From NCBI GenBank assembly GCA_050247255.1, contig JBFWUM010000012.1, forward strand, positions 22,716-86,715: a DNA stretch of 64,000 bases. The letters are read 5' to 3'. The notes below the pieces were generated by a model. It was not told the origin of the DNA, ran no database searches, and saw only the letters and a program-made list of their open reading frames with translations. The position numbers were made by a program, and so were the translations under genes. Shown one piece after another: positions 13,892 to 53,587 of the stretch. Within the stretch, counting starts at the first letter, position 1; each line of letters opens with the position of its first letter. The DNA is from Vicinamibacterales bacterium (lineage in GTDB: Bacteria > Acidobacteriota > Vicinamibacteria > Vicinamibacterales > UBA2999).

Positions 13892-14009
13892 GTCCTGCCA
13901 CGCCTGGATCGGCGATTTCAGGCCGTTTTTTGTTCCGGCCTGGTCGGCAGGCCTTCAAGTTTGTTGGTTCACACGCCTGGCGCCACAAAGACGTCGCCAG
14001 AAATGTCTC

Positions 14010-15704: not shown

Positions 15705-18700
15705 CGTTCCTCCACGCGCAACACGGCCAGCTGCTGGCCGGCGGTGACCATGGCGCCCTTGCTGCACTGCACCAGCTCGATCACCCCTTCGCTCGGCGCG
15801 ACGATGGCGACCTCCATCTTCATCGCCTCGAGGACGAGGATCTTCTGCCCGGCGGCCACGCGCTGGCCTGGCTCCACGGCCACCTGCCACACGCTGGCGG
15901 TCATCGGCGACCGGACCGCCTCGCACCCGTCAGGGACGACCGCCGGCGCCGGCGGCGGCATGTCATCGGGCGGCTCGACGAACTCCGGCTGCCCGGCGGC
16001 CGCCCAGCGCTCGCGCTCGGCCACGAAGGCGGCCTGCTGCATCTGCTTGAAGGCGCGCGCCTCGGGCGCAATCGCATCGAGAAAGCGGTGGTAGCTGGCG
16101 AGGCTGAACTCGGTCTGCTCGATGCCGATGCTGTATTCACCGTGCGGGAACGCCTCGCGCATCTCCAGCAGTTCCGCCGCCGAGACCGGGAAAAAGCGAA
16201 TCTGATCGAAGAAGCGAAGCAGCCACGGTGAACCCGGCCGGAACTCCGCCGTGGTGCGGTAGGTGTTCCACATCTGCACGGTGCGGCCGACGAACTGGTA
16301 GCCGCCCGGCCCCTCCATCCCGTAGACGCAGAGGTAGGCGCCGCCGATGCCGACGGAGTTCTCGGCCGTCCAGGTCCGCGCCGGGTTGTATTTCGTCGTC
16401 ACCAGCCGATGGCGGGGGTCGATCGGGGTCGCCACCGGAGCGCCCAGGTAGACGTCGCCCAATCCGAGCACGAGGTACGACGCGTCGTAGACGATGTCGC
16501 GGACCTGGCTGATGGTGTCGAGCCCGTTGATGCGGCGGATGAACTCGGTGTTGCTCGGGCACCACGGCGCATCGGGGCGGACCGACTGCATGTACTTCTC
16601 GATGGCCAGCAGGGTCGCCGGGTCTTCCCAGGACAGCGGCAGGTGCACCACGCGGCTCGGGATCGTCAGGTCGTCGAGCGCCGGCAACGCCGCGTCGCAC
16701 TCGTCGAGGACGGCGAGCAGGCGATCGCGCGACAGCTGGCGGCTGTCGTAGTGGATCTGCAGCGAGCGGATACCGGGGGTGACATCGACGATGCCGCGCA
16801 GCCGCTGCTGGCGCAGCTGCTGCTCGAGCGCGTGGATGCGGAACCGCAGGTTGAGATCGAGTTCGTTGGGGCCCGTCTCGACCAGCAGGTAGCGGTCGCC
16901 CGCGGCCCTCGACACCGTCGCCGCGCCGCGGCGCACCACTGCCGGATCGCGCTGTTCGACATCCAGCGCTGGCAGGGCGCCGGCCAGGCGCGCGACGGCG
17001 CCGTCGAGCGCCCGCTCGAGACCCGTGGCCTGGGCCTCGGTCATGAAACGGAACCGCACAGTGTCGCCCGCGCGCAGCTGGCCGATCTTCCACAGCTCCG
17101 CCTGGGCGATCACCGCCGGGCAGACGAAGCCGCCAAGGCTGGGGCCGTCCGGACCGAGCAGGATCGGCATGTCGCCGGTGAAGTCCATCGCGCCGACGGC
17201 ATAGGCGTTGTCGTGCAGGTTCGACGGGTGCAGTCCCGCCTCGCCGCCGTCCCGGCGCGCCCACGTGGGCCGCGGTCCGATCAAGCGGACGCCGGTGCGA
17301 TCGGAGTTGTAGTGGACCTTCCACGTCGCGCCGAACAGCCGGCCGATGTCCTCGCCGGTGAAGAAGTCGGGCGCGCCGTGCGGGCCATACAACACGCCGA
17401 CGTCCCACTCGTTGGACCAGCGCGGCACGAGGTCGGCCGGCAACTGCTCTACCGGCGGCGTCGCCCGGTCGGGCGCGCCCCAACGCAGCATGTCGCCCGC
17501 GCGCAGCACCCGGCCGGCGTGGCCGCCGAACCGGCCGAGGATGAACGTGGATCGGCTGCCGAGGTACGACGGCACGTCGAGTCCGCCGCGGATCGCGAGA
17601 TACGCCCGGGCGCCAGCGGTCTCCGCCGCCCGCAACCGGAGCACCGCTCCCGCCGGCACCACGATCGACCGCCAGCGCTCCACCGGCGTGCCGTCGAGCG
17701 TCGCCCGCATGTCGGACCCACCGAGGGCGATGACCGTCGGCGCGTGGAAGCGGAGCGTCGGCCCGGTGAGCGTGCACTCGAGCCCGGCCGCCGACTCGGG
17801 ATTGCCGACGAGGCGATTGACCAGCCGGAACGAGAGCGTGTCCATCGGGCCTGACGGCGGAACGCCGACATGCCAGTACCCGAGCCGGCCGGGATAGTCC
17901 TGCACCGTGGTCTGCATGCCGGGATCCAGCACCTCGACCGCGTTGGGCCGGTACTCGATCCCGGCCAGGAACCGGGTCGGGAATCCGCCCGCCTGGAAGC
18001 CGGGCGTCGCCACCACCTGGCGCAGGTATTCGAGATTCGTCTCGAAGCCGGCGAACGAGGTGGCGGCCAGCGCGTCCTGCAGCCTGGCCACCGCGGCATC
18101 GCGCGTCTCGCCGCGGACGATGATCTTCGCGAGCATCGGGTCGTAGTACGGGGTGACCTCGGTGCCGGTGGCGACCCACCCATCGCAGCGCGCGTCCTCG
18201 GGCAGCCGCACCTCGGAGAGCGTCCCGGTGCTGGGGCGGAAGTCGTGGGCAGGGTCCTCCGCGTAGACGCGCACCTGGATCGCGGCGCCTTTCGGCACCA
18301 CGGCCAGCGACTCGAGCGGCGGCAGCTCGCCGGCGCCAAGCCGCACCATCCACTCCACCAGGTCGATGCCGGTCACTTCCTCCGTGACGCCGTGCTCGAC
18401 CTGCAGCCGGGTGTTCACTTCGAGAAAGAAGTACTCGTCGCGATCGGCGTCGTAGAGGAACTCGGCGGTGCCGGCGGAGCGGTATTGCACCGCGGCGGCG
18501 AGCCGCTCGGCGGTCTGCCAGAGGCGGCGGCGCGTGTCGTCGCTGAGCCCAGGCGCGGGCGTCTCCTCGATCACCTTCTGGTTGCGGCGCTGCGCCGAGC
18601 AGTCGCGCTCCCCCAGTGCCAGGACGCCGCCGCGCCCGTCGCCGAACAGCTGCACCTCGATGTGGCGGGCCCGCTCGACGAAGCGCTCCAGGTAGACGCC

Positions 18701-19282
18701 GCCCTGTCCGAAGTTGGCGGCGCCGAGGCGGGCGACCGGGGCGAAGTGCTCGCGCAGCTCCTGCGGCGTGCGGCAGACGCGCATGCCGATGCCGCCGCCA
18801 CCCGCCGTGCTCTTCAGGATCACCGGGTAGCCGCATCGCTCCGCCTCGGCGAGCGCGTGGTGCTCGTCGTCCAGCAGCCCGGTGCCGGGCAGCAGCGGGG
18901 CGCCGGCGGCCTCGGCGATCTCGCGCGCGGTGTGCTTGAGCCCGAGCTCGCGCATCTGCCCGGCGGTCGGTCCGAGAAACACGAGGCCGGCGCGTTCGCA
19001 CGCCTCGACGAAGCCGGCGTTCTCGCTGAGGAACCCGTAGCCCGGGTGAATGGCTTCGGCGCCGGTGCGGACGGCGGCGTCGAGGATGGCCGCCTGGTCC
19101 AGGTAGCTCTGGGCCGCCGGCGCTGGCCCGAGGCGCACGGCGGCGTCCGCCTGCGCCACGTGCGGCGCGTGGCGATCGGCATCGGAATACACTGCGACCG
19201 GCGAGACCCCCATTCGCCGGAGCGTGCGCAGCACGCGGCAGGCGATGGCCCCGCGGTTGGCAATGAGGACCTTACGGAACAT
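15692..19282 (-). CDS. Urea carboxylase family enzyme (biotin carboxylase + KipI/KipA-like carboxyltransferase + BCCP); possibly guanidine carboxylase
   Basis: 1196 aa. N-terminus [17 protein letters not shown] (biotin carboxylase ATP-grasp), central allophanate-hydrolase-subunit-like domains, and the C-terminal biotinyl motif LEAMKME. Confidence 0.95.
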   Translation of the reverse strand: MFRKVLIANRGAIACRVLRTLRRMGVSPVAVYSDADRHAPHVAQADAAVRLGPAPAAQSYLDQAAILDAAVRTGAEAIHPGYGFLSENAGFVEACERAGLVFLGPTAGQMRELGLKHTAREIAEAAGAPLLPGTGLLDDEHHALAEAERCGYPVILKSTAGGGGIGMRVCRTPQELREHFAPVARLGAANFGQGGVYLERFVERARHIEVQLFGDGRGGVLALGERDCSAQRRNQKVIEETPAPGLSDDTRRRLWQTAERLAAAVQYRSAGTAEFLYDADRDEYFFLEVNTRLQVEHGVTEEVTGIDLVEWMVRLGAGELPPLESLAVVPKGAAIQVRVYAEDPAHDFRPSTGTLSEVRLPEDARCDGWVATGTEVTPYYDPMLAKIIVRGETRDAAVARLQDALAATSFAGFETNLEYLRQVVATPGFQAGGFPTRFLAGIEYRPNAVEVLDPGMQTTVQDYPGRLGYWHVGVPPSGPMDTLSFRLVNRLVGNPESAAGLECTLTGPTLRFHAPTVIALGGSDMRATLDGTPVERWRSIVVPAGAVLRLRAAETAGARAYLAIRGGLDVPSYLGSRSTFILGRFGGHAGRVLRAGDMLRWGAPDRATPPVEQLPADLVPRWSNEWDVGVLYGPHGAPDFFTGEDIGRLFGATWKVHYNSDRTGVRLIGPRPTWARRDGGEAGLHPSNLHDNAYAVGAMDFTGDMPILLGPDGPSLGGFVCPAVIAQAELWKIGQLRAGDTVRFRFMTEAQATGLERALDGAVARLAGALPALDVEQRDPAVVRRGAATVSRAAGDRYLLVETGPNELDLNLRFRIHALEQQLRQQRLRGIVDVTPGIRSLQIHYDSRQLSRDRLLAVLDECDAALPALDDLTIPSRVVHLPLSWEDPATLLAIEKYMQSVRPDAPWCPSNTEFIRRINGLDTISQVRDIVYDASYLVLGLGDVYLGAPVATPIDPRHRLVTTKYNPARTWTAENSVGIGGAYLCVYGMEGPGGYQFVGRTVQMWNTYRTTAEFRPGSPWLLRFFDQIRFFPVSAAELLEMREAFPHGEYSIGIEQTEFSLASYHRFLDAIAPEARAFKQMQQAAFVAERERWAAAGQPEFVEPPDDMPPPAPAVVPDGCEAVRSPMTASVWQVAVEPGQRVAAGQKILVLEAMKMEVAIVAPSEGVIELVQCSKGAMVTAGQQLAVLRVEERCGA

Positions 19283-19932
19283 CAGTCAACGGGATCCCAG
19301 ATGAGCACGCGCACCGGCGTCGGGTTGTAGCCGTTGCAGGGGTTGTTCAGCTGCGGGCAGTTGCTGATCACCGCCAGGACGTCCATCTCGGCGCGCATCT
19401 CCACATACTTCCCCGGCGCCGACACGCCGTCCTCGAACGTCAGCTTCCCCTCCGGGGTGACCGGCACGTTCATGAAGAAGTTGATGTTGTGCGTGATGTC
19501 GCGCTTCTCCAGCCCGTGCCCCCAGCCCACGATCGCCTTGACGAAGCTCTGGCGGCAGGCGTGCATGTGCCGCTTCTCGATCGCGTAGCGCACCATGTTG
19601 CTCTCGGTGGCGCAGGCGCCGCCGAGCGTGTCGTGGCGGCCGCAGGTGTCGGCGACGATCGTCAGCAGCGTGTTGCCGCGCGACGACACCAGCCGCGTGC
19701 CGGCGGTCAGGTAGATGCTGCCCTGCTCGCGTATGGTGTCCTGCGCCGAGTAGCGATCCGCGGTGTCGCGCGCGTTGTAGAACAGGGTGTCAGCCGCCTG
19801 GTTGCCCTCGAGATCGACGATGCGGAAGTGCTGCCCCTCGCGGATTTCGTGGATCCACGGCTCGCCGGCGGGCACGACCTCGTCGTGCACGGCCAGCGCC
19901 GGGTCGAGTGGGCTCTCGATCAGGGCGGTCAC
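19282..19932 (-). CDS. Urea-carboxylase-associated protein, DUF1989 family (type 2; carboxyguanidine deiminase subunit-like)
   Basis: [18 protein letters not shown] and the C-terminal [16 protein letters not shown] are typical of DUF1989. Start chosen at GTG 19932 (GTGA overlap with the upstream stop) rather than the ORF-track start at 19992, which would overlap by 63 nt. Confidence 0.8.
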
Positions 19933-20666
19933 AGGAAGTACCTCTCCGTGAGCGTGAAGCCGCGGGCGTTCTCGGGTCTCGACAGCCGGCACTCATCGTC
20001 CGCGGCCGGCGGTGCCACGCGCCGGACCGACAGCGCGGCCGGCTTCGGGTCATAGTGCGCGTTGGGATCGAGCGGGTGCTGGCAGGTGTTGAGGATGACC
20101 AGCACGTTCATCTCGGCGCGCAGCTCCACGTGACTGCCGGCCGCCGAGTGGCCGGCCACGAAGACCATCCGCCCGGCGTCGTCCACCTGCACCTTGCTGA
20201 ACAGGTTGAGCGGGGCGACCATGTCGCGCTCGCCCAGGCCGTACTTCGCCAGCTCGATGACGAAGCTGTCGAACGCATTTCGGTGACAGGCGTTGAGGTG
20301 CTCCTGGTACCGCGCGCCGCCGTACTTGGCCTCGACGAGCGCGGCGTTGGCACACCCGCTGAGCGGATCGTGCCAGCCGACGCTGTCGCTGGTCATCGAG
20401 CAGAGGATGCGCCCCATGTCGGAATAGAGCACGAACCCGCGTGTGAGGCGCGCGATGTGCTGCGCCTTCAGCGTGTCCGGCATGTTGTACCGCTCGGTCG
20501 GGTTGTCGGCGTTGTAGAACAAGGCTCCGACATTGGCGCCGCCCGCGACATCCGTGATGCGCAGCGCCGTGCCGCGCTTCAACACGTGCGACCAGGTCGC
20601 GCCCGGCTCTACCCGATCGTCGAACAACGGAATGTGTGGGCCGGCGTCAGCCGGCCCGGATTCCAT
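19929..20666 (-). CDS. Urea-carboxylase-associated protein, DUF1989 family (type 1; carboxyguanidine deiminase subunit-like)
   Basis: [36 protein letters not shown] and NTCQHPLDP. Paralogous to the next gene. ATG 20666 shares one nt with the upstream stop; ATG 20693 is an alternative. Confidence 0.8.
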
Positions 20667-27298: not shown

Positions 27299-30200
27299 CT
27301 AGTCGATGAAGAGGAACTCGTTCGAGCTGATGAGCGCCCAGGCAAACGACCGCAGCGGCGAGTCGGGCAGCCGCTTCGGCGCGTCCTTCGCGTCCGTGCC
27401 GTCGGCCCCCTGCTCGGCCTGCGGCACCGGCGGCGGCGTGTCCGCCTGCGGCGGCTTGTCGATGAACGCCATCGACACCGAGAGCTCCTCGGGCGTCGGC
27501 CGGCGCTGGTAGATCCGCTCGAAGGCCTGCGTCACCTTCGCCTGCGGGGTCCCGGCCGTCTCGAGCGAGTCGGCGATGCGATCGGCCTGCCGCTGCACCA
27601 GGGCGCTGTTCAGGAAGAACAGCCGCTGCTGCGGCACGTTGGTCGTGTAGCGCTTCTCCGTCGAGATGGTCGCAGTCGGCAGGTCGAAGGTGGCGTGGAA
27701 GTCGGCCGGATACATCCGGCTCACCTTCGCGTAGACCGCGCGCCGCTTCATCTTGTCGTCGAGGTCCGCCGACGGCCCGCCGATGCCGGAGAGGTCGAGC
27801 TCGCCTGACGTCTGGAGCAGCAGGTCCCAGACGCCTTCCGAGTCGATCCGCTGCCGGTTCGCGCGCCAGTAGAGCGTGTTGCTCGGGTCGCGGCCGACGT
27901 TGGCGGCGATCGGCGCGGCGCTGAGCTGGTAGGTCCGGGACATCAGGATGTCCTTGTGCAGCTTCTTGAACGACCGGCCGTCGGCGATGAACTTCGCGGC
28001 CAGGAAGTCGAGCAGCTCCGGGTGGGTCGGCCGGTCGCCGGCCATCCCGAAGTTGCTCGGCGTGTCGACGATGCCGCGGCCGAAGTGCCAGCGCCAGACG
28101 CGGTTGACGATGACCCGCGCCGAGATCGGGTGGGCGATGATGTCCTCGGCGAGCTGCAACCGGCCGCTGCCCTCGGTATAGACCTTCGCCTGGCCGCGGT
28201 TGAGGATCGACGGGAACCCTCGCGGCGCGTCGACGCCGAAGGTGTAGGGGTTGCCGCGCGTGAACACCTTGAGGTCCGACGGCTGCTCCGCCTCGCCGAT
28301 GCCGTAGATGGCCGGCGGCCGCGGCGGCATCGCCTTGCGGAACGCCTCGATGTCGGCGCGCTGCCTGTCGATGTGCAGCCTGAAGTCGGCCGACAGCCGC
28401 CGTTCGAGCGCGCCGCCCGTCAGTTTGAGCACCCCGGGCACCGGCCGCGCGTTGTCGTCCATGTCCTCGGCGGTCGCCTCGGGCACGTCGCGGTCGAACA
28501 CGTCGCGCCACAGCAGCTGCTCTTCGCGGTCGAGGCTCTTCAGGTCGATCTGGTAGTTGTTCAACCGGCGTTTCTTGCCGTTCGGCAGCGGATCGGCCGG
28601 GTCCTTGTCGTCCTTGACCGATGCCAGCAGGATCTCGTTCTCCTTCGAGAGCTTGAGGTACTTCTCGTTGACCTCCGCGACCGTGGCGACGAACTCGGCC
28701 GCCAGCTTCTTCGCCTGCTCCTCGGTGCCGCCGAGCGACACCATCTCCTGCCAGGTCTTGAGCGCCGAGTAGTTGTCCGGCCGCTTCTTGAGGAAGCGTT
28801 CCCAGCGCCGCAGCAGCTCCGGATCCAGCTTCGCCTCCTCGGCGATGTCCTCGACGGTCGCCTTCTTCTCCTTGCCGAGCTTCCAGGCCGCCACCATGTA
28901 CGCCTCGGCCTGCGAGAACAGGACCTGCGCGTAGACGTCGGAGGCGTCCTCGAGGAACTGGCGCAGGTCGGCCTGCTTCTTCTCGAGGACCTTGTTCTCC
29001 TTCTCCCATTCGTCGGCGACCGACTTCGGCACCCGCGGGTACGACTTGAAGTTCGAGCTGGCGAAGATGCTCGCCATCCCGTAGTAGTCCTTCGAGTAGA
29101 TGGCGTCGTACTTGTGGTCGTGGCAGCGGGCGCAGCCCACGGTGACGCCCATGAAGGCCTTGCTGGTGACGTCGACCTTGTCGTGCCACTCGTCGGCGCG
29201 TTCGATCGGCGCCGGACTGGCCTGGAAGATCCAGATGCCGTTGCCGTGGAAGCCGAGCGCCGGCAGGTGCGAGTCGCGGATCCGGTCCGGCAGCAGATCG
29301 GCGGCCAGCTGCGCCTTGACGAACATGTCGTACGGCATGTCGTCGTTGAGCGCGCGGATCAGCCAGTCGCGATACAGGTAGGCGAACGGATACTTCTCGG
29401 TGCGGTCCGGGCGACCGCCGACGTTGTAGTCCTCTTCGCCGTAGCGGGCGACGTCCATCCAGTGGCGGGCCCAGCGCTCTCCGTAGCGCGGAGACGCCAG
29501 CAGCCGGTCGACGACCTTCTCCCAGGCGTCGGGGCTCTGGTCGTTCTCGAAGGCCTGCACCTCCTCGTAGGTCGGCATCAGGCCGGTCAGGTCATACGTG
29601 ACGCGCCGCAGCAGCGTGCGGCGGTCGGCCGTCGTCGTCGGCTTCAGGCCCTCCTTCTCGAGCCGGGCCAGCACGAACCGGTCGATGTCGGTGATCGGCC
29701 AGGCGGCGTCCTTGACCGCCGGCGGCTGGTGCGTGCCGAGCAGCTGCACCGACCAGAGGTTCTTCTGCTCGTCCGAATAGGTCTTCTGCGGGGTCGTGTC
29801 GACCGGCCAGTAGGCGCCGTCCTTCACCCAGGTGACGAAGAAGGCGATCTGCTCCTCGGTCAGCCGCGTGCCCCCCTTGGGCATCCGCAGCGTGCCGCTG
29901 TGCTTGAGCGCGGCGATGATCAGGCTGCGATCCGGGTCACCGGGAACGATCGCCGGCCCCGACGCGCCGCCCTCGAGCAACCCGGCGCGCGAATCGAGCC
30001 GCAGCCCGCCGCTCTTCTGCGCGCCGTGGCAGGCGAAGCACTGCTGCGCGAGCACCGGACGGATGTGCGTCTCGAACTGATCGCTCAGCACCGCCTCGGG
30101 CTTGGTGCCGGCCTGCACCTCGGGCCACGCGGCCCCGTCCGCGATCCACGCCTCGAGACCGGCGATGGTCGCATCGCTCAACTTGTCGGCGCCGAGCGGC

Positions 30201-30526
30201 ATCTTCAGCGCCGTCGTGTGCCTGAGCGCGGTGATCAGCAGGCTCTTCGACGGATCGCCGGGCACGATGGCCGGGCCCGACTTGCCGCCGGTCAGCAGGC
30301 CCTCGCGCGAATCGAGCCGGAGCCCGCCCATCGCCGTCGGGCCGTGACAGCTCGAGCAGCTCTGGGCCAGGACCGGGCGGACGTTCTTTTCGAAGAACTC
30401 CGTCTGTGTCGGCGTCGGTGCCGGTGCAGCCGTCGCCCCCTGCGACGACTGTGCGGTGAGCGCCCCGGTGTAGACGAACAGCGCCAGCGGCAGCAGTGCC
30501 GCCAGCGCAGTGAGAAACCGTGTCAT
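27299..30526 (-). CDS. PSCyt1/PSCyt2(DUF1549)/PSD1(DUF1553) multidomain protein (planctomycete-type cytochrome c domains)
   Basis: 1075 aa with a signal peptide and two FFEKNVRPVLAQSCSSCHG / IRPVLAQQCFACHG haem-like CxxCH modules, followed by long DUF1549/DUF1553-like regions. It has the canonical pairing with a downstream DUF1501 gene. Confidence 0.85.
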   Translation of the reverse strand: MTRFLTALAALLPLALFVYTGALTAQSSQGATAAPAPTPTQTEFFEKNVRPVLAQSCSSCHGPTAMGGLRLDSREGLLTGGKSGPAIVPGDPSKSLLITALRHTTALKMPLGADKLSDATIAGLEAWIADGAAWPEVQAGTKPEAVLSDQFETHIRPVLAQQCFACHGAQKSGGLRLDSRAGLLEGGASGPAIVPGDPDRSLIIAALKHSGTLRMPKGGTRLTEEQIAFFVTWVKDGAYWPVDTTPQKTYSDEQKNLWSVQLLGTHQPPAVKDAAWPITDIDRFVLARLEKEGLKPTTTADRRTLLRRVTYDLTGLMPTYEEVQAFENDQSPDAWEKVVDRLLASPRYGERWARHWMDVARYGEEDYNVGGRPDRTEKYPFAYLYRDWLIRALNDDMPYDMFVKAQLAADLLPDRIRDSHLPALGFHGNGIWIFQASPAPIERADEWHDKVDVTSKAFMGVTVGCARCHDHKYDAIYSKDYYGMASIFASSNFKSYPRVPKSVADEWEKENKVLEKKQADLRQFLEDASDVYAQVLFSQAEAYMVAAWKLGKEKKATVEDIAEEAKLDPELLRRWERFLKKRPDNYSALKTWQEMVSLGGTEEQAKKLAAEFVATVAEVNEKYLKLSKENEILLASVKDDKDPADPLPNGKKRRLNNYQIDLKSLDREEQLLWRDVFDRDVPEATAEDMDDNARPVPGVLKLTGGALERRLSADFRLHIDRQRADIEAFRKAMPPRPPAIYGIGEAEQPSDLKVFTRGNPYTFGVDAPRGFPSILNRGQAKVYTEGSGRLQLAEDIIAHPISARVIVNRVWRWHFGRGIVDTPSNFGMAGDRPTHPELLDFLAAKFIADGRSFKKLHKDILMSRTYQLSAAPIAANVGRDPSNTLYWRANRQRIDSEGVWDLLLQTSGELDLSGIGGPSADLDDKMKRRAVYAKVSRMYPADFHATFDLPTATISTEKRYTTNVPQQRLFFLNSALVQRQADRIADSLETAGTPQAKVTQAFERIYQRRPTPEELSVSMAFIDKPPQADTPPPVPQAEQGADGTDAKDAPKRLPDSPLRSFAWALISSNEFLFID

Positions 30527-30545: not shown

Positions 30546-33500
30546 CTAGAACTCGTAGCGAAGCGCGAACTGCATCACGCGGGCGGGCGCCGCCGCGGTG
30601 AACTGGCCGAAGGTCGCCGGCGAGTTGGCGTCGAGCGAGATGCGCGTGAAGTTCACGTTGTTGAAGGCGTTGAACGCCTCGGCCCGGAACTGAATCCGGT
30701 GGCGGTTCGGCAGCGTCACCGACTTGGTCAGCGAGATGTCGGCGTTGACGTAGTCGTCGAGCCGCACCGCGGCGCGGGTGCCGACCTCGCCCGGCAGCAT
30801 CGGCAGCCAGTTGGCCGCCGCCTCCTGCGGGTCGGCGAAGATGCCCGGCTGCCCGTTCGCGTTCATCTGCACCTGCGCCTCCTCGTCACCGGTGGCGTAG
30901 GCGAGCGTCGTGAACGAGAAGTTGGTCGGCCACAGGCCGCTGTAGGCAACCGCCGACGGCAGCGCCGAGCGGTAGCGGAAGATCGTCGACAGCTGCCAGC
31001 CGCCGACCAGCCCGTCGAGGATCGGGCCGGCGTTGCCGAGCAGCGGCTTGCCGCGGCCGAACGGCAGCTCGAGCAGGACGTTGCTGTTGATGTTGTGGCG
31101 GACGTCGAAGTCCGAGTCCCCGTAGAACGAGTCGAGGTCGTACGGGTTCAGCATCAGGCCGCCGGCGCTGCCGCCGCCCGATTCGGGGGCGCCACCGTTG
31201 TCCATCGCGTGCGCCAGTGTGTAGTTGACGTCGAACGAGACACCGGCGCTGAACGATTTGCGCAGCGACACCAGCAGCGCGTTGAAGTTCGAGTAGCCGG
31301 CGTTGGTCCACATCGACATGCCGCTGCTCTGCGTCGGATACATCGTGTAGCAGCCGGTGGCGATGATGCAGTTGGGGTACGCCGCCGACTTCACCCGGTC
31401 GATGGCGTGTACCGCGTCGGCGTCCGAGCCGCCGAACTGCCCCCAGATCAGGTCGTAGTAGTTCGCCGTCGCGCTGCCGGAGAAGAACATGTTGGCCAGC
31501 GCCGGCGCCTGGTTCTCGATCCACGGGATCGGCGTCACCAGCGACGGGTTGGCGCGGACCTGTGCCGGCGTGATGCCGGCGTCGTGGACGGCGCGGATGG
31601 CGTGCGCCATCTCCTTCCAGGTCTGCCCGGAGGCCTGGTCCTTGAACAGAATCGACCAGCCGCCGGCGTCGGTCTGCATCAGCAGGTCACGCGACCAACG
31701 CCCCATGTAACCGACCTCCGCCGACAGCCCGCCGCGCAGCTCGCGCGCTACCGAGACGTTGGCGTTGAACGAATACGGCGCGTGCAGCGTCGAGTCGATG
31801 CCCATGTAGTTGCCGCCGATGAAGTTGACCTCCGGCGGCGTGAACGGGAAGGCGTGGACGGTAGCCGCGGGAATCAGCGGCGTCGTCCCGCTGTAGCGCG
31901 TGCCGGTGGTGAAGTTCACCGACGACGACCGCACCACCTCCGACAGGCCGAACGAGGCGCTGTTGTCGAACTGCGTCACCAGGTCGCTGCCGAAGCGGTC
32001 GTAGGTCAGTCCGGCGCCGGCGCGGATGACGCCGCCGCTGCCGGTCAGCTTCGAGAGAAACCCGCCTTCCGGCGTGTAGGCGATGGCCACGCGCGGGGCA
32101 AAGTTGTTGTGATCCGCGCCGTACCAGCTGGCCTTGCCATTCGCGGGGCCGATGAAGTCGTACGACAGCAGGCTGTTGGTCATCTGGTTCATCGGCAGGC
32201 CGGCATCCATCGCCGCCAGCCGCTCCTGCCAGAACTCCTGCAACGGGAAGGTCGGCGCCACCTGCAGCCCGCTGGTCTCGTAGGGCACGCCGAGGTTGAC
32301 GTAGCGCACGCCGTAGGTCAGCGTCAGGTTCGGCGTCATGCGCCAGTTGTCGCCGAAGTAGAGCTCGAACTCGTTGCTGGCAAACGTCCGCGTCGTCGGC
32401 TCGCCGATGGCCAGCGGGTTGCCGAGCCCGTCGTAGCTGTAGGTCATCGAGGCGCCGGTGACGATGCCGAACAGGTCGAGGAACGCCCGGCTCACCGAGT
32501 TCGCGTCCGCCAGCCGGATGCCCGGGCCGTAGGTGGCCGCCAGGTAGTTGTTGGCGAGCGCGGTGATGTCCGAGCCGAGGCCGAGCAGCGAGCCGCGATT
32601 GATCGAGATGCTCGGGAAGGCGTTGCTGTAGTTCGTCCGCGTGTTGCGGATGAACCGCAGGTTGCCGCCCATCGTCATCGTGTGCGTCCCCTTGGTCCAG
32701 GTGAGGTCGTTGACGATGTTGTAGGTCGGTGCCTCGCGCTCGAACGGCCGCGTGTAGTCGTTGAGGGCGGCGACGCTGTCCATCGAGAACGACGGGCCGA
32801 CCTGGCCGGTCTGCGACAGCCGGACGTTGGTCAGGCCGAAGTTCGTGACGTTGACCAGGTTCGAGGCGAGGACGCCGGTGTAGGCAGCCGAGACGCCATA
32901 GCTCTTGTTGAGCGCCACCGACGCCGCGTCCTGGCCGGGGAACTGCGCCAGCACGCGATCCTCGGAGTTATCGGCGAACGTCGCGCGCACCGAGAGGTTG
33001 TGCGCGCTCTGGTTGTCGAGCTTGACGTCGAACTTCATCACGTAGGCGCGGTTGTCGAGCGTCAGCGGCGCGTTGAAGCGGTAACCGGCGAAATTGAGGC
33101 CGACGTCACGGCCGAGCGAGGGATCGTTCCCTTCCGGCAGCGCGTTGAGAATCGCCAGCATCGCCGGGTTGACGCCGAGCCCGAGTGGGTCAATGGCCTT
33201 GATGGCGTCCGGACCGAGGGCGTAGGTCTGACCGTTGGTGGCGCGGGCCATGATGATCCCCTGCCGCAGCGTGTCGGAGCCGACGTTGCGCGTCTCGCCA
33301 CGGGCGCTGTCGTCGGTGCGCCGCTCGAAATTGCCGAAGAAGAAGACGCGGTCGCGCACAATCGGGCCGCCGAGCGACACGCCGTACTGGTTGCGCTTGA
33401 GCTGCTCCTTCGGGATGCCCGCACGGTTGTTGAACCAGGTGTTCGAGGAGAACTTCGTGTCGCGGTTGTACTCGTAGCCCGACCCGTGGAACTGATTGGT

Positions 33501-34259
33501 GCCGCTCTTGGTGACCAGCGATACCTGGCCGCCGGAGCTGCGTCCCTGGTTGGCGTTCTGCCCGCCGACGGTGACGCGGAACTCCTGCACAGAATCGAGC
33601 GGCACCGGCAGCACGGCGTTGAACCCGCTCTCGCGCTGCTGGCCGGTGTTCAGGCCGCCCTGCTGGCCGTTGCCATCCGCGGCCTGGAGGCCTGCGGTCT
33701 GGTTGTCGTTGATGTCGACGCCGTCGAGGGTGATGTTGTTCTGGTCGCGGCGCGCGCCGACCACTTCGCCGGTCGGCGTCACCCCGGGCTGCAGGCTGAG
33801 CAGCTCGACGACGTTGCGCGTCAGCAGCGGCAGCGCCCGCACCTGCAGTTCGTTGAAGGCGTTGCCGACCGAGGCGTCGACCGTGTTGATCGTCTGGATC
33901 GTCGCCTCGACGCTGACCGTTTCCGCCAGGCCGGCGAGCTCGAGCCGCACGTCGGCGGTCGCCGGCGTGTTCACCTGCAGCGTGACCGCACTCGACGCGG
34001 TCTGGAAGCCCTGCAGCTCCGCTGTCAGCGTATAGGTCCCGGGCGGCACCTGGAGGAACTGGTAGTTGCCCGTTTCGTCGGTGTAGACCGTGCGCGAGAA
34101 CGACGTCTGCTCGTTGACGAGCGTCAGCGTCACGCCCGGGATGGCGGCGGCCTGCGCATCGCCAACCTTGCCTCTCAGCGAGGAAGTGGCCTGCGCGAAC
34201 GCCGACACCGTGATCGACAGGACAACGGCGGCGAGTACAAGGATCCGGCTGCGGTGCAT
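30546..34259 (-). CDS. TonB-dependent receptor with N-terminal carboxypeptidase-regulatory-like domain
   Basis: Start ATG 34259 (GGAGG 10 nt upstream). Signal MHRSRILVLAAVVLSITVSAFAQ, CarboxypepD_reg pattern GVTLTLVNEQT..TDETGNYQFLQVPPGTYTLTAELQGFQ, and a C-terminal aromatic ..ALRYEF. Confidence 0.85.
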   Translation of the reverse strand: MHRSRILVLAAVVLSITVSAFAQATSSLRGKVGDAQAAAIPGVTLTLVNEQTSFSRTVYTDETGNYQFLQVPPGTYTLTAELQGFQTASSAVTLQVNTPATADVRLELAGLAETVSVEATIQTINTVDASVGNAFNELQVRALPLLTRNVVELLSLQPGVTPTGEVVGARRDQNNITLDGVDINDNQTAGLQAADGNGQQGGLNTGQQRESGFNAVLPVPLDSVQEFRVTVGGQNANQGRSSGGQVSLVTKSGTNQFHGSGYEYNRDTKFSSNTWFNNRAGIPKEQLKRNQYGVSLGGPIVRDRVFFFGNFERRTDDSARGETRNVGSDTLRQGIIMARATNGQTYALGPDAIKAIDPLGLGVNPAMLAILNALPEGNDPSLGRDVGLNFAGYRFNAPLTLDNRAYVMKFDVKLDNQSAHNLSVRATFADNSEDRVLAQFPGQDAASVALNKSYGVSAAYTGVLASNLVNVTNFGLTNVRLSQTGQVGPSFSMDSVAALNDYTRPFEREAPTYNIVNDLTWTKGTHTMTMGGNLRFIRNTRTNYSNAFPSISINRGSLLGLGSDITALANNYLAATYGPGIRLADANSVSRAFLDLFGIVTGASMTYSYDGLGNPLAIGEPTTRTFASNEFELYFGDNWRMTPNLTLTYGVRYVNLGVPYETSGLQVAPTFPLQEFWQERLAAMDAGLPMNQMTNSLLSYDFIGPANGKASWYGADHNNFAPRVAIAYTPEGGFLSKLTGSGGVIRAGAGLTYDRFGSDLVTQFDNSASFGLSEVVRSSSVNFTTGTRYSGTTPLIPAATVHAFPFTPPEVNFIGGNYMGIDSTLHAPYSFNANVSVARELRGGLSAEVGYMGRWSRDLLMQTDAGGWSILFKDQASGQTWKEMAHAIRAVHDAGITPAQVRANPSLVTPIPWIENQAPALANMFFSGSATANYYDLIWGQFGGSDADAVHAIDRVKSAAYPNCIIATGCYTMYPTQSSGMSMWTNAGYSNFNALLVSLRKSFSAGVSFDVNYTLAHAMDNGGAPESGGGSAGGLMLNPYDLDSFYGDSDFDVRHNINSNVLLELPFGRGKPLLGNAGPILDGLVGGWQLSTIFRYRSALPSAVAYSGLWPTNFSFTTLAYATGDEEAQVQMNANGQPGIFADPQEAAANWLPMLPGEVGTRAAVRLDDYVNADISLTKSVTLPNRHRIQFRAEAFNAFNNVNFTRISLDANSPATFGQFTAAAPARVMQFALRYEF

Positions 34260-34327
34260 CGAGAGGAACCTCCGAAATAGCAAAACGGCGAATGGACGGA
34301 TGCCAGTCCGCGGATGCCGGCGTGTGG

Positions 34328-34343
34328 TGCAAGCGAAATGCCC
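34328..34343 (-). promoter_or_regulatory. Candidate sigma-54 promoter (-24/-12) of the TonB-receptor-to-allophanate-hydrolase array
   Basis: Minus strand reads GGGCAT-TTCGC-TTGCA (consensus TGGCAC-N5-TTGCW, correct GG-N10-GC spacing). The -12 element is ~68 nt upstream of ATG 34259. Confidence 0.5.
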
Positions 34344-34432
34344 CGCGTCGCACACGCGCCCGTGGCCGGATAAGTCGTTGTCGCAACGACGGTTGTCGCG
34401 CGGCGCGCCCGCGCGATCGAAGCCTGCGCGTG

Positions 34433-34448
34433 CGAACACAAATGTTCG
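34433..34448. promoter_or_regulatory. Palindrome CGAACA-CAAA-TGTTCG; candidate enhancer (UAS) site
   Basis: Perfect 6-4-6 dyad ~100 bp upstream of the -24 element at 34343. A near-identical GAACA-N4-TGTTCG with a similar GC-rich flank occurs at 49496-49510, at a similar distance from a second sigma-54-type promoter. Confidence 0.4.
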
Positions 34449-34632
34449 TCGGCGCGGCGAACGACACATCGATGTTGGAATTCGATCTCGCGCGGACGGC
34501 GGCGGCGGCGACGGCGACGCGCGGCGATGCGGTATCTGCCGGCGGCGACGGACACTTCTGTCGATGCGACGCGCGCGCGGGCACACATTCGTCTGTAGCC
34601 TGCGGTGCGCAGAGACGCGATACTGCGTCGCG

Positions 34633-36819
34633 ATGCGTCGTCATGCCCGCCGTGCCCTGACCCTCACACTCACCCTCGCCCTGACCGCGATCGCCTGCGC
34701 CGACGCGCTCGCCCAGTCGATGACCGTTCGCGCCGTCCGACTCGGCGAACCGCTGCGCATCGACGGCGCGCTCGACGAGCCGCTGTACCGCGAGACCGAG
34801 CCGATGACCGGGTTCGTCCAGATCGAGCCCGACGCCGGCGCCCGCGCCACCGAGCGCACCGATGCCTGGGTGGCCTTCGACGGCGGCTACGTCTACGTGA
34901 GCTTTCGCGTGTGGGACTCGCAGATGGATCGCCTGGTCGCGACCGAGATGCGCCGCGACAACGGCAACATCTGGTCGGGCAACGACATCGTCGTGTTCGT
35001 CTTCGACACGTTCAACGATCGGCGCAGCTCGATCTCGTTCACGGTGAATGCGATCGGCGGCCGCTCCGACGGGCAGGTGATCAACGAGCGGCAATACAAC
35101 GCCGACTGGAACCCGGTATGGGCGCTCGAGACCGGCCGCTTCGACGGCGGCTGGACGCTGGAGGCGGCGCTCCCCTTCAAGTCGCTGCGCTACCAGCCGG
35201 GGCCGGAACAGGTGTGGGGATTCAACGCCATGCGCGTGAAGCGCTCGCGCAACGAGACCTCGACGCTGTCGCCGGTGCCGCCGTCACAGGGCGCCCAGGG
35301 CGTCGAGCAGCCGGTCTTCGCCGCGCAGCTGCTCGGCATCGAGGCACCGCCGCAGGGGCCGGCCATCGACGTCAAGCCGTATGTCTCGTCTGCCCTGGCC
35401 AGCGGGCGCGACGGCCGCGCCGAGGCCGGCCTCGACGTCAAGTACGGGATCACCCGCAACCTGACGGCGGACGTCACGGTGAACACCGACTTCGCGCAGG
35501 TCGAGGCGGACCAGCAGCAGATCAACCTGACCCGCTTCAGCCTCTTCTTCCCGGAGAAGCGCGAGGTCTTCCTCGAGAACCAGGGCACGTTCTCGTTCGG
35601 CGGGGTCGCGGTCGGCAGCCTCAACGCCGGCCAGTCGGACGCGCCGATCCTCTTCTACAGCCGGCGCATCGGCCTGCACGAGGGACGGGAGGTGCCGATC
35701 CGCGGCGGCGCCCGGCTCACCGGCCGCGCCGGCCGCTACACCATCGGCGCCGTCAGCATCCAGTCCGACGACGAGCCGGTCGCCGGCGCCGCCGCGTCGC
35801 ACGCCACCGTGGCCAGGCTCAAACGCGACGTGTTCGGCCGCAGCAGCATCGGGGTGATGGCGACGCGACGCGCCTCGGCGGGAGCCGACCAGCTCGCCTA
35901 CGGCGTCGACGGCACGTTCGCCTTCTTCCAGAACCTGCAGCTGAACACCTACTGGGCCCGCACGGAGGCGGCGGCCGGCGTCAGCCGGCCCGACAACACC
36001 AGCTACCGCGCGCAGCTCGAATACACCGGCGATCGCTACGGGCTGCAGATCGAGCGGCTTGGCATCGGCCGCGACTTCGCCCCGGAGGTCGGCTACGTCC
36101 GCCGCGCCGACATGTTCCGCAGCCTGGCGCAGGTGCGCGTCAGTCCGAGGGCCCGGGCCGGAAGCGCCATCCGCAAGTACGTCTACCAGGCGACGCTCGA
36201 CTACGTGGAGAACGGCGCCGGCACGCTCGAAACCCGCACCCGCAGCGCCGAGTTCGTCCTGGACTTCCGCAACGCCGACCGGCTGGGGGCGCTCTACACC
36301 AACAGCTACGAGTACCTGCCGCGGCCGTTTGCCATCGGCGGCGGCCTCACGCTGCCGACCGGCGAGTACGCGTTCGACACGGTGCGGCTCAACTACAACA
36401 TGGGCCAGCAGCGGGCGGTGTCGGCGAATCTGTCGCTGGAGCACGGCACGTTCTACAGCGGCCGCAAGACGTCGGTGAGCATCGCGCGCGGCCGCATCCC
36501 GGTCACGACGCAGATGTCGGTGGAGCCGACCTATTCCTACAACCGTGTCGCGCTGGCGGAGGGACGCTTCTCGACGCATCTGGCCGGCACCCGCGTCACC
36601 TACACCGCGACGCCGCTGATGTTCGTGAGCGCGCTCGTGCAGTACAACGCCGGCACCCGCACCACGTCGACCAACGCGCGCCTGCGCTGGGAATATCAGC
36701 CGGGCAGCGAGCTGTTCGTCGTCTTCAACGAGGAACGCGAACAGCAGCGCACCGGCGTCCTGCCCGGCGCGGCGCATCGATCGTTCATCGTGAAAGTGAA
36801 TCGGCTGTTCCGCTTCTGA
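34633..36819 (+). CDS. DUF5916 / CBM9-like domain outer-membrane protein
   Basis: Start ATG 34633. Signal MRRHARRALTLTLTLALTAIACADALAQ. The N-terminal LRIDGALDEPLYRE..WVAFDGGYVYVSFRVWD is CBM9/DOMON-like, and the long beta-rich C-terminal part ends in ..VKVNRLFRF (terminal Phe). Confidence 0.75.
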   Translation: MRRHARRALTLTLTLALTAIACADALAQSMTVRAVRLGEPLRIDGALDEPLYRETEPMTGFVQIEPDAGARATERTDAWVAFDGGYVYVSFRVWDSQMDRLVATEMRRDNGNIWSGNDIVVFVFDTFNDRRSSISFTVNAIGGRSDGQVINERQYNADWNPVWALETGRFDGGWTLEAALPFKSLRYQPGPEQVWGFNAMRVKRSRNETSTLSPVPPSQGAQGVEQPVFAAQLLGIEAPPQGPAIDVKPYVSSALASGRDGRAEAGLDVKYGITRNLTADVTVNTDFAQVEADQQQINLTRFSLFFPEKREVFLENQGTFSFGGVAVGSLNAGQSDAPILFYSRRIGLHEGREVPIRGGARLTGRAGRYTIGAVSIQSDDEPVAGAAASHATVARLKRDVFGRSSIGVMATRRASAGADQLAYGVDGTFAFFQNLQLNTYWARTEAAAGVSRPDNTSYRAQLEYTGDRYGLQIERLGIGRDFAPEVGYVRRADMFRSLAQVRVSPRARAGSAIRKYVYQATLDYVENGAGTLETRTRSAEFVLDFRNADRLGALYTNSYEYLPRPFAIGGGLTLPTGEYAFDTVRLNYNMGQQRAVSANLSLEHGTFYSGRKTSVSIARGRIPVTTQMSVEPTYSYNRVALAEGRFSTHLAGTRVTYTATPLMFVSALVQYNAGTRTTSTNARLRWEYQPGSELFVVFNEEREQQRTGVLPGAAHRSFIVKVNRLFRF

Positions 36820-37048
36820 GCGGGTCGGCCGGCGGGAGAAGCATCCGGCTGGCGGGAACGCCCCGCCAGCCGGTGCCCGTTGGAGGAGAGATACGCGTTA
36901 CATGAACGCGCGGGACGTCTCTCCAGAGAGCAAGCCGACTGCCACCTTCGGCCGTGACGGCCGGACACCACATTTCAGGCGTTTTTCCGATTGTTTTCGG
37001 TGTTTTCCCGCCGGTGCGGGTTCCCGCGGAACGCCGACAGAAACGTGG
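36703..37048 (+). repeat. 346-bp direct repeat, copy A (last 117 nt of the DUF5916 gene + 229 nt downstream)
   Basis: 344/346 identical to 53189-53534 at a constant offset of 16486. The mismatches are at 36725 and 37001. Weaker similarity continues ~45 nt further. Confidence 0.9.
36845..36873 (+). terminator. GC-rich hairpin downstream of the DUF5916 gene (no U-tract)
   Basis: CCGGCTGGCGGG-aacgc-CCCGCCAGCCGG, a 12-bp perfect stem 26 nt after the stop codon. Duplicated at 53331-53359. Confidence 0.4.
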
Positions 37049-37095
37049 TAATCGCTGGCTGCCCGCACAAAGACGAAAGATCGCCCGGCACACCG

Positions 37096-37911
37096 TCAGA
37101 ACATGCGCAGCGCCGTCACCGCGAGAAAGACGGCGAAGACGCGTCGCAGGTACCGGGTATCGAGTCGGTGGGCCAGCCGCGCTCCATACGGCGCGAGCAG
37201 CGTCGAGGTCGGAAAGATCAGGGCGAAGCCGATCAGGCTGACATAGCCCACGCTGAAGGGCGGCAGGCGCGGCGCGTTCCACCCGGCAATGGCAAACCCG
37301 ACGGCGCCGGGCACGCCGATGAGGAACCCGATGGCCGCCGCCGTGCCAATGGCGCGGTGGATCGGGTACCCGAAGAGCGACAGGAGCGGGACGCTGAGCG
37401 TCCCGCCGCCGATCCCCATCATCGCCGAGAGCGCGCCGATGACGCCGGCGATGATCGCCCGGACTCCACCGCGGGGCAGTTGTTGGGCCACCCGCCACTC
37501 TGCCCGCCCCAGCCCCATGTACCCGGCGACCACGAGCGCAGCGCAGGCGAACACCAGGGTCAGGACCCGGCCGCGGACCGCGCCGGCCACGGCGGTGCCA
37601 ACGAGCACTCCGCCGAGGATCCATGGACCCCACTGGCGCAGCAGGCCGACATCGACCGCCCCGCGCCGATGGTGCGCCCGCACCGACGACGCCGAGGTCG
37701 CGATGATGGTCGCCAGCGAGGTGCCCACGGCCAGGTGCATACGCACCCCTTCGTCGACGCCCATCGAGGTGAACAGGGTCCACAGGACCGGCACGAGCAC
37801 GATGCCGCCGCCGACCCCCAGGAGCCCGGCGGTCACGCCGGCCACCGCACCGGCACCGAGCAACACCAGCACGAGCGGGAACACCTGCTCGACGCCCCAA
37901 GGCGAGGGCAT
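37096..37911 (-). CDS. TauE/SafE family sulfite/anion exporter
   Basis: Start ATG 37911 (shares 1 nt with the upstream stop). 271 aa, ~8 TM, with two LGVGGG / MGIGGG repeats characteristic of TauE/SafE. Confidence 0.85.
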   Translation of the reverse strand: MPSPWGVEQVFPLVLVLLGAGAVAGVTAGLLGVGGGIVLVPVLWTLFTSMGVDEGVRMHLAVGTSLATIIATSASSVRAHHRRGAVDVGLLRQWGPWILGGVLVGTAVAGAVRGRVLTLVFACAALVVAGYMGLGRAEWRVAQQLPRGGVRAIIAGVIGALSAMMGIGGGTLSVPLLSLFGYPIHRAIGTAAAIGFLIGVPGAVGFAIAGWNAPRLPPFSVGYVSLIGFALIFPTSTLLAPYGARLAHRLDTRYLRRVFAVFLAVTALRMF

Positions 37912-49376: not shown

Positions 49377-49392
49377 AGCAAGACGGGTTCCA
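49377..49392 (-). promoter_or_regulatory. Candidate sigma-54 promoter (-24/-12) of the DUF1592-to-TauE array
   Basis: Minus strand reads TGGAAC-CCGTC-TTGCT (TGGCAC-N5-TTGCW spacing), ~40 nt upstream of ATG 49338. Confidence 0.45.
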
Positions 49393-49495: not shown

Positions 49496-49510
49496 GAACA
49501 TTGCTGTTCG
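49496..49510. promoter_or_regulatory. Palindrome GAACA-TTGC-TGTTCG; candidate enhancer (UAS) site
   Basis: 5-4-5 dyad ~110 bp upstream of the -24 element at 49392. It has the same half-sites and a similar flank (TGTTCGTG-CGGCGCG versus TGTTCGTC-GGCGCGG) as 34433-34448. Confidence 0.4.
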
Positions 49511-49987: not shown

Positions 49988-50003
49988 TGGCCCATCACTT
50001 GCT
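49988..50003 (+). promoter_or_regulatory. Candidate sigma-54 promoter (-24/-12) of the second TonB-dependent receptor
   Basis: Plus strand reads TGGCCC-ATCAC-TTGCT, ~95 nt upstream of ATG 50098. Confidence 0.45.
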
Positions 50004-53044: not shown

Positions 53045-53188
53045 GTTCCCGCGCCATCCCACCCAGTATCACGTCCTCGCGATCCCGATCGGTTGAGTGC
53101 GATCTGTCGGCACGACCCCCGAACATGGCGCGCAGCAGTGGAGCTCCTGTGCGAGCTTCGGCAAGCGATACGGCCGGCAAACCATCCT

Positions 53189-53305
53189 GGCAGCGAGCTG
53201 TTCGTCGTCTACAACGAGGAACGCGAACAGCAGCGCACCGGCGTCCTGCCCGGCGCGGCGCATCGATCGTTCATCGTGAAAGTGAATCGGCTGTTCCGCT
53301 TCTGA
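53189..53305 (+). pseudogene. 3'-terminal remnant (last 38 codons + stop) of a DUF5916-like gene
   Basis: Encodes SELFVVYNEEREQQRTGVLPGAAHRSFIVKVNRLFRF, versus ..ELFVVFNEE.. at the end of 34633..36819. Sequence upstream of 53189 is unrelated, so no intact gene is present. Confidence 0.7.
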
Positions 53306-53534
53306 GCGGGTCGGCCGGCGGGAGAAGCATCCGGCTGGCGGGAACGCCCCGCCAGCCGGTGCCCGTTGGAGGAGAGATACGCGTTACATGAACGCGCGGG
53401 ACGTCTCTCCAGAGAGCAAGCCGACTGCCACCTTCGGCCGTGACGGCCGGACACCACATTTCAGGCGTTTTTCCGATTGTTTTCGGCGTTTTCCCGCCGG
53501 TGCGGGTTCCCGCGGAACGCCGACAGAAACGTGG
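53189..53534 (+). repeat. 346-bp direct repeat, copy B
   Basis: 344/346 identical to 36703-37048. Confidence 0.9.
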
Positions 53535-53587
53535 AAACCGCCGACGTCCCCATACAAAGACGAAGGATCGCCCTCCGGACCGTGCCG

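Follow-up and report, generated by a model that had tools for sequence, protein, structure and literature searches.

We analyzed a 64,000-nucleotide stretch of DNA from a Vicinamibacterales bacterium (phylum Acidobacteriota; contig JBFWUM010000012.1 of GenBank assembly GCA_050247255.1), referred to here as the window. The element under study is a -24/-12 box of the sigma-54 (RpoN) type that lies in a 373-bp intergenic spacer (34260 to 34632). The spacer is divergent: a minus-strand gene starts at ATG 34259 and a plus-strand gene at ATG 34633. The minus-strand gene codes for a TonB-dependent receptor (TBDR) and heads an array of 11 genes, which is followed by the gene for a sigma-54 enhancer-binding protein (EBP). 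Members of the Acidobacteriota rank with the most abundant bacteria of soil; to our knowledge, almost nothing is known about the regulation of nitrogen acquisition in this phylum. The results described below indicate, with a probability of roughly 0.8, that the box at 34343 to 34328 is the genuine sigma-54 promoter of the 20.25-kb, 11-gene array, acting as one operon together with upstream enhancer dyads and a NifA-like EBP.

Results

Annotation of the array with Pfam and NCBIfam revealed a gap-free series of minus-strand genes from 34259 down to 14010. Gene 1 (30546 to 34259) encodes the TBDR, which carries a CarboxypepD_reg domain, and gene 2 (27299 to 30526) encodes a DUF1549/DUF1553 protein with a cytochrome domain. 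Genes 3 to 5 code for a DUF1501 protein, a beta-propeller protein, and a protein of the metallo-beta-lactamase fold (MBL), while genes 6 and 7 code for a sodium:solute symporter (SSF) and a second beta-propeller protein. The array ends with genes 8 (UAAP1; 19929 to 20666, with an overlapping stop/start at 20666), 9 (UAAP2; 19282 to 19992), 10 (urea carboxylase; 15692 to 19282, TIGR02712 at 1833 bits), and 11 (allophanate hydrolase; 14010 to 15926). We considered an apparent 670-bp gap at 19993 to 20665 as an internal promoter region and rejected it, as a second DUF1989/UAAP1 gene fills it. By its gene content, the operon would span from a TonB-dependent outer membrane receptor to a urea (or guanidine) carboxylase/allophanate hydrolase pathway. 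The original prediction of a nitrogen-scavenging array of about 20 kb behind the promoter is supported by these genes. The same gene order is found in the related loci L001, L051, L052, and L053 (see below). For the DUF1549/1553-DUF1501 pair, the searchable literature offered no functional study. A rhizosphere metatranscriptome (run X12) contained a 227-nt contig that matched the 5′ portion of the receptor coding sequence with 98% identity, which hints at transcription of this gene by a close relative in soil, with DNA carry-over as a possible source.

The spacer is covered by contigs of two independent source runs (landfill metagenomes), which extend from 33300 to about 34990 and show 0 differences. 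The spacer is therefore genuine contiguous DNA and not an assembly join. On its other side lies a gene for a secreted DUF5916/CBM9-like protein (34633 to 36819, plus strand; identified by Pfam, with an ATG and a signal peptide). A scan with the position weight matrix (PWM) described below did not detect a sigma-54 box on the strand of this gene within the spacer. The DUF5916/CBM9-like gene stands directly upstream of the receptor gene both in the window and in L001; the two genes are divergent in the window, whereas they are in tandem in L001 (3159 to 5294), so a local inversion has taken place around a promoter region that is itself conserved. Scanning the spacer for a sigma-70 consensus promoter and for a terminator yielded neither. 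An Rfam search of the whole window gave no match at the gathering threshold, and the segment from 34200 to 37150 gave none even at an E value of ≤1.

The box reads GGGCAT-TTCGC-TTGCA on the minus strand (GGGCATTTCGCTTGCA; 34343 to 34328). Its GG (34342-34341; -24/-25) and GC (34330-34329; -12/-13) doublets are exactly 10 nt apart, the spacing that defines sigma-54 promoters, and the TTGCA element is complete. The box is noncoding, is on the same strand as the receptor gene, and is separated from ATG 34259 by 83 nt, counted from the GG. A GGAGG ribosome binding site is present at 34273 to 34269. These features were all located as the original prediction had described them. If the transcription start follows the -12 C at the usual distance of about 12 nt, it would fall near 34317, and the predicted leader would comprise 58 nt (34260 to 34317, minus strand), in agreement with the length proposed earlier. 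Folding of this leader was no better than that of shuffled sequences (z = 0.09), i.e., it is unstructured.

We then evaluated the box as a single sequence. A loose consensus (TGGCACN5TTGCW with up to 2 mismatches) gave 19 matches in the window, compared to 22.9 expected, and this approach, together with ad hoc scoring, was dropped as uninformative. The exact pattern GGCAY-N5-TTGCW occurs once in the window (128 kb on both strands; 0.39 expected). We then employed a log-odds PWM built from 175 curated sigma-54 promoters in the S2 table of PMC12316311; the file labeled S3 in the same publication contains protein motifs and was unusable as a DNA matrix. The training promoters have a median score of 18 bits and a 5th percentile of 11 bits. 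The box in the window scored 6.1 bits (rank 23 of 127,964 positions), below 99% of the training sites and short of the level of known members. A background scan of this kind had been set beforehand as the ground on which the promoter could be refuted, and by this measure the box alone was no better than chance, with shuffled windows yielding about 21 equal matches. On its own sequence, this -24/-12 match does not exceed chance, and the signal becomes significant only with comparative data.

The same scan revealed that the three top matches of the window, at 49391 (minus strand, 15.4 bits), 13890 (minus strand, 15.3 bits), and 49989 (plus strand, 14.6 bits), each lie just upstream of a gene start and in the right orientation. 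At 14.5 bits or more, three matches were observed, compared to 0.375 expected. Since the three strongest matches all immediately precede genes, sigma-54 promoters are evidently in use in the window.

For the comparison, relatives of the receptor were fetched from species-representative genomes and metagenomes. We obtained 10 loci with receptors of 60 to 68% identity, which represent six independent lineages beyond the window (L001; L051; L052/L053/L061; L054/L057; L055/L058; and L056). The motif GG[CT]A[CT]-N5-TTGC was present in 7 of 7 lineages, 53 to 138 nt before the receptor ATG, and in every lineage this same box was the best PWM match within 250 nt upstream of the receptor gene. The boxes of the relatives scored 10.4 to 13.7 bits, toward the lower end of the training range, with per-lineage P values of 0.005 to 0.02 against a null distribution drawn from the same loci. 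When the seven promoters were aligned on the box, pairwise identity was 90% at the box positions; it fell to 29% within the N5 spacer and to 28% over flanks of 30 nt. The contrast between box and flanks indicates selection on the -24/-12 motif itself. The recurrence of one motif as the top match in all seven orthologous upstream regions supports the reading of the box as a sigma-54 promoter, which the single sequence had not done. In the more distant receptor homologues L002 to L004 (about 48% identity), the box is absent. One of these, L003 (15 to 9672; a Bryobacteraceae metagenome-assembled genome [MAG]), contains a permuted gene set consisting of allophanate hydrolase, DUF1549/1553, DUF1501, and propeller genes with the receptor gene last. 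The L003 receptor gene is internal to its operon and does not have a sigma-54 box of its own.

Upstream of the box, the original prediction had listed three perfect dyads, and all three are present. Dyad 2 (CGAACA-N4-TGTTCG, 34433 to 34448) has the core ACA-N4-TGT at 34436 to 34445 and is centered 98 bp upstream of the GG, consistent with the enhancer distance of about 100 bp claimed for it; its half-sites recur at the promoter near 49.5 kb. Dyad 3 (ACA-TCGA-TGT, ACATCGATGT; 34466 to 34475) belongs to the same family and is centered 128 bp upstream of the GG, 30 bp from dyad 2. The earlier list missed a further member of this family, GACA-CTTC-TGTC at 34551 to 34562, which has its center 214 bp before the GG and lies about 76 bp from the ATG of the divergent gene. 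It is the sole exact GACA-N4-TGTC in the window and also one of six sites matching the extended half-site ACRYTTCTGK. The three ACA-N4-TGT dyads fall within the range of about 80 to 250 bp expected for sigma-54 activator sites. Dyad 1 (GTCGTTG-N3-CAACGAC, 34374 to 34390), which lies between these putative upstream activator sequences (UAS) and the -24 box, is outside the ACA-N4-TGT family and has no counterpart in the orthologues; a function for it is unsupported.

Perfect dyads as such were mildly enriched in the spacer and near chance (two with 7-bp arms compared to 0.35 expected; P = 0.07). ACA-N4-TGT occurs nine times in the 64 kb, with three occurrences inside the 373-bp spacer (P of about 2 × 10^-5). 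Across the seven orthologous upstream regions, we counted 11 occurrences, compared to 0.28 expected. The dyad consensus is GCGACA-AATT-TGTCGC, with an AT-rich center, and a spacing of 29 to 32 bp between paired dyads recurs in L001, L155, and L157.

The EBP gene (12733 to 13839, minus strand) follows the array after a 170-bp gap and codes for 368 amino acids (aa), with a coiled-coil linker, an AAA+ domain containing GAFTGA, and a helix-turn-helix (HTH) domain (HTH_8). The protein matches PF00158 (3e-72) and PF02954 (Fis-type HTH) and has an intact HEAGAFTGA as well as the Walker A and Walker B motifs. It has no sensory domain: the AAA+ domain begins at residue 56, the protein starts at the interdomain linker helix, and the open reading frame (ORF) is not extendable upstream. 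The best NCBIfam match was nifA (TIGR01817), at 421 bits and under the equivalog cutoff of 528.85; scores against the PspF models were also under their cutoffs (305.9 versus 443.55 for TIGR02974 and 269.7 versus 529 for NF008622). A second GAF-less copy of 366 aa, 75% identical, is found in another Acidobacteria MAG (L106), which indicates that the short form is real.

Orthologues with 55 to 75% identity are present in Holophagae, Myxococcota, Desulfobacterota, Planctomycetota, Spirochaetota, and others. Most have about 520 aa with an N-terminal GAF domain, and their genes are often followed by P-II and ammonium transporter (amt) genes. As judged from these proteins, the EBP is a member of a widely conserved family of NifA-like nitrogen regulators and is not specific to the array. 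Throughout the family, the HTH retains its recognition region, AARLL-TTERI-NYK. We rejected the notion that synteny dedicates the activator to the array, as 0 of 76 orthologue loci share a neighbor gene with the window. The earlier claim that an activator gene ends the array therefore holds in that the protein is a sigma-54 EBP with an intact GAFTGA; it needs correction in that the protein is sensorless and of a family found far beyond this array.

The EBP gene is itself preceded by a sigma-54 box (TGGAAT-GCCGC-TTGCT, 13876 to 13891, minus strand), 37 nt from the ATG and the second-best PWM match of the window, and by a near-dyad, ACATTTCTGG (13997 to 14006), that matches ACRYTTCTGK. In L106 (1036 to 2237), the box TGGAAC-N5-TTGCT (14.0 bits) is the sole match of at least 10 bits in the locus and is accompanied by the locus's only dyad. 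The full-length EBP gene in L057 has no such strong box. The presence of a box and dyad before both GAF-less EBP genes, and not before the full-length gene of L057, suggests a cascade or a positive-feedback design.

In L057, the gene for the full-length, GAF-containing orthologue of the EBP is oriented divergently to the receptor gene, and the intervening DNA carries three dyads and the box. As an independent test of the dyad, we considered 45 strict sigma-54 boxes located next to EBP orthologues in other phyla; 14 of them had an ACA-N4-TGT within 350 bp upstream, compared to about 3 expected. Two loci carry three dyads between divergent sigma-54 boxes, and spacings of 29 to 30 bp echo the 30-bp pair of the window.

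Discussion

Taken at its simplest, the arrangement would work as follows. Sigma-54 RNA polymerase would sit on the GG (-24) and GC (-12) elements as a closed complex, and dimers of a NifA-like EBP would bind the ACA-N4-TGT dyads 98, 128, and 214 bp upstream of the GG. The dimers would then form an ATPase ring, reach the promoter by looping, and use the GAFTGA loop to remodel it, so that transcription would begin near 34317 and run through the 58-nt leader into the 11-gene operon. The motifs, their conservation, the gene content, and the EBP motifs were observed directly; for binding, the transcription start site (TSS), the inducing signal, and the identity of the acting EBP, this scheme draws on homology and architecture. 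The activator is likely the local EBP (12733 to 13839), a full-length paralogue with GAF encoded elsewhere in the genome, or the two together. Because the local EBP lacks a sensor and its own gene appears to be driven by a sigma-54 box and dyad, its amount rather than its activity is probably what is regulated under nitrogen limitation. A full-length GAF paralogue may supply the signal in a cascade, the local EBP may amplify itself by feedback, or both may occur.

The design has close parallels among classical sigma-54/UAS promoters, such as glnAp2 with NtrC and nifH with NifA. It shares with them the GG-N10-GC spacing, dyads about 100 to 240 bp upstream, a GAFTGA AAA+ activator encoded nearby, and an operon for nitrogen scavenging. 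Unlike in the classical systems, no IHF-like AT-rich site is evident in the window promoter. The UAS of nifH/NifA has the form TGT-N10-ACA, and the NtrC site also differs from ACA-N4-TGT; the window dyads would thus not qualify as NifA-type UAS. The EBP resembles the NifA family in its best NCBIfam match, its ELFGHE-GAFTGA AAA+ domain, its Fis-type HTH, and its full-length, GAF-containing orthologues beside P-II and amt genes, but it differs in scoring under the equivalog cutoff, lacking GAF, and having no nif genes nearby. Like PspF and HrpR/HrpS, it consists of only the AAA+ and HTH domains. Sensorless EBPs are presumably constitutive, so that control falls to the expression level or a partner protein, and by analogy the window EBP would presumably be constitutively active as well. 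Unlike these proteins, it scores under the PspF cutoff, has no pspA-like or hrpV-like negative regulator in its vicinity, and has a GAF-containing ancestry.

Several observations weigh against the assignment of box 34343-34328 as a sigma-54 promoter served by this EBP. The box in the window is the weakest of the orthologous family (P = 0.13 per 250-nt region at its 6.1 bits), and besides its low PWM score it departs from the classical sequence at -26, where G replaces the usual T, and at -21, where T makes it GGCAT instead of GGCAC. Both the box motif used in the comparison and the dyad pattern were defined after viewing the data, which is offset by the independent PWM and a second locus set. 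L051 has no exact dyad and carries only ACGTTTCTGT. As EBP orthologues are not found beside array genes, the pairing of EBP and promoter comes down to the shared dyad and L057. No rpoN gene is present in the 64-kb window according to profile annotation. Finally, metatranscriptome matches were confined to one weakly matching run, with a single contig at 34012 to 34238 that lies inside the coding sequence and is uninformative for the TSS.

The alternative that survives best accepts the promoter and reassigns the dyads. Here, the ACA-N4-TGT sites would bind another regulator (e.g., a repressor or a regulator of the DUF5916 gene), and a different EBP, perhaps of the NtrC type, would act through unrecognized sites. 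This is suggested by the lack of synteny between EBP orthologues and the array in the 76 other loci, by the closeness of the distal dyad (34551 to 34562) to the divergent ATG, and by L051. It also draws on a precedent in Desulfovibrionales, where the single-component EBP DVU1949 is predicted to control amt-glnB, glnN, glnA, and others (Kazakov et al. 2015, PMC4641369). Computationally predicted DVU1949 sites, e.g., GTAACAAATTTGTCCA and TTTACATTTTCGTAAC, are located upstream of sigma-54 promoters (PMC4641369) and show the same CA-N4-TG dyad with an AT-rich center as the window. The DVU1949 DNA-binding domain (LTPRQMGYRIRQW) differs from that of the window EBP family (TTERIFNYKVRKH), and therefore the dyad type does not identify the protein that binds it. 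DVU0569, whose DNA-binding domain looks most similar, was tried as a guide to the DNA site and rejected, its predicted sites being of a different type. However, the pairing of dyad and sigma-54 box is seen in different phyla specifically next to orthologues of this EBP family. The dyad also precedes the GAF-less EBP genes themselves, and in L057 it occupies the region between adjacent EBP and receptor genes. Moreover, the dyads persist in L001, where the DUF5916 gene is not divergent. We consider a different regulator at these dyads unlikely on balance.

Poorer still are the prospects of a chance match in GC-rich DNA, with the operon being read from an unrecognized sigma-70-type promoter elsewhere in the spacer. 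The 6.1-bit score, with about 21 equal or better matches per shuffled window, and the unenriched loose consensus are what such a match would produce, and since acidobacterial housekeeping promoters are poorly defined, the negative sigma-70 scan is weak evidence. Coincidence does not account for the recurrence of the box as top PWM match in 7 of 7 orthologous regions, its 90% identity amid flanks at background level, or the conserved dyad family that accompanies it, and we regard it as improbable. That the conserved motif is a cis-acting RNA or DNA structural element, such as a leader or attenuator, would suit its location in the 5′ part of a long operon with products that hint at control by metabolites, and urea carboxylase-type operons are riboswitch controlled in some bacteria (guanidine-I/ykkC), but the riboswitch/attenuator idea was dropped given the lack of any Rfam match at the gathering threshold or at an E value of ≤1 and the unstructured leader, and because the box-to-ATG distance varies from 53 to 138 nt while only the GG-N10-GC-spaced positions are conserved, as fits a DNA motif read by a protein and not a structure, its likelihood is negligible.

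Returning to the sigma-54 promoter with its enhancer dyads and NifA-like EBP, its conservation leads us to regard it as real; it follows the ordinary sigma-54/UAS/EBP design. A broader proposal, which we put forward tentatively and with less than even confidence, is that this promoter is one node of an undescribed acidobacterial nitrogen-limitation regulon defined by the ACA-N4-TGT enhancer. In such a regulon, a GAF-deleted NifA-like activator, itself expressed from a sigma-54 promoter with a dyad, might serve as a feed-forward or positive-feedback amplifier. Both long scavenging operons might be among its targets, as might the second TonB-dependent receptor and a sigma-54-dependent small RNA, present in two copies, with an exposed anti-Shine-Dalgarno sequence, CUCUCCUCC.

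The searchable literature contained no description of a sigma-54 regulon of this sort for Acidobacteriota, a phylum that is not covered by the 2025 cross-phylum survey of sigma-54 (PMC12316311). In Proteobacteria, genes for urea carboxylase and COG3665 (urea-amidolyase-associated) proteins are under predicted sigma-54 promoters (PMC12316311). Unlike those operons, the pathway genes in the window come last in a 20-kb operon that begins with genes for a TBDR and uncharacterized DUF1549/1553-DUF1501 proteins. The analysis supplies a promoter grammar in which ACA-N4-TGT dyads accompany a GGCA(C/T)-N5-TTGC box, together with a candidate regulator family, and it links the uncharacterized TonB receptor/DUF1549-1553/DUF1501 uptake module to the degradation of urea or guanidine. 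It also carries a caution: in DNA of 68% GC, a real sigma-54 promoter can score at chance on a PWM, so that only phylogenetic footprinting separates promoter from noise.

Other candidate regulon members in the window

The extended half-site ACRYTTCTGK, a pattern defined post hoc, occurs 6 times in the window, compared to 0.49 expected, and all sites are intergenic and beside sigma-54-type boxes. Two of the marked places are the EBP promoter and the spacer at 34260 to 34632. Further sites lie in the DNA that separates a second long scavenging array from a second receptor gene, in an intergenic stretch at 56.7 kb, and in both copies of a 391-bp repeat.

The second array is on the minus strand and runs from ATG 49338 down to 37911. 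It encodes a DUF1592/1588/1587/1585/1595 protein, a DUF1552 protein, an ankyrin protein, a cytochrome c′, a hydrolase, a formamidase/acetamidase-like protein, a gamma-glutamyltranspeptidase, and an MFS protein. At its head is the best PWM match of the window, TGGAAC-CCGTC-TTGCT (49377 to 49392, minus strand; 15.4 bits), and a perfect dyad, GAACA-GCAA-TGTTC (49498 to 49507), lies 111 bp upstream of this box. On the opposite strand, the box TGGCCC-ATCAC-TTGCT (49988 to 50003; 14.6 bits) stands 109 nt before the gene for a second TonB-dependent receptor with a CarboxypepD_reg domain (ATG 50098). Dyad-like sites are found at 49642 and 49765 in the divergent spacer between the second array and this receptor gene.

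The repeat is present at 36697 to 37086 and 53183 to 53573; the copies are 96.7% identical and include the last ~123 bp of the DUF5916 gene. Each has the minus-strand box TGGCAG-TCGGC-TTGCT (36944 to 36929 and 53430 to 53415), with a dyad-like ACGTTTCTGT about 97 bp upstream. Downstream of the box, we predict a noncoding and strongly structured transcript of about 85 nt (36918 to approximately 36832, and its twin) with a minimum free energy of -43.2 (z = -4.66). It would comprise a small hairpin, the exposed anti-Shine-Dalgarno-like CUCUCCUCC, and a 12-bp GC hairpin. The small RNA-like repeat had no Rfam match, and blastn against all 181 fetched loci did not detect a homologue. We regard the repeat unit as a candidate sigma-54-dependent small RNA in two copies. 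About 0.8 kb separates the first copy from the end of the MFS gene (within 36820 to 37910); this segment has long ORFs on both strands, with no Pfam match or clear codon-position GC signal.

At 56470 to 56768, the box TGGCGC-ACGGG-TTGCT (10.5 bits) is located about 14 nt before ATG 56499 of an 89-aa ORF that Pfam does not match. At the 3′ end of this ORF are two dyads with a spacing of 30 bp (56722 and 56752), just before a circularly permuted ATP-grasp/transglutaminase gene set.

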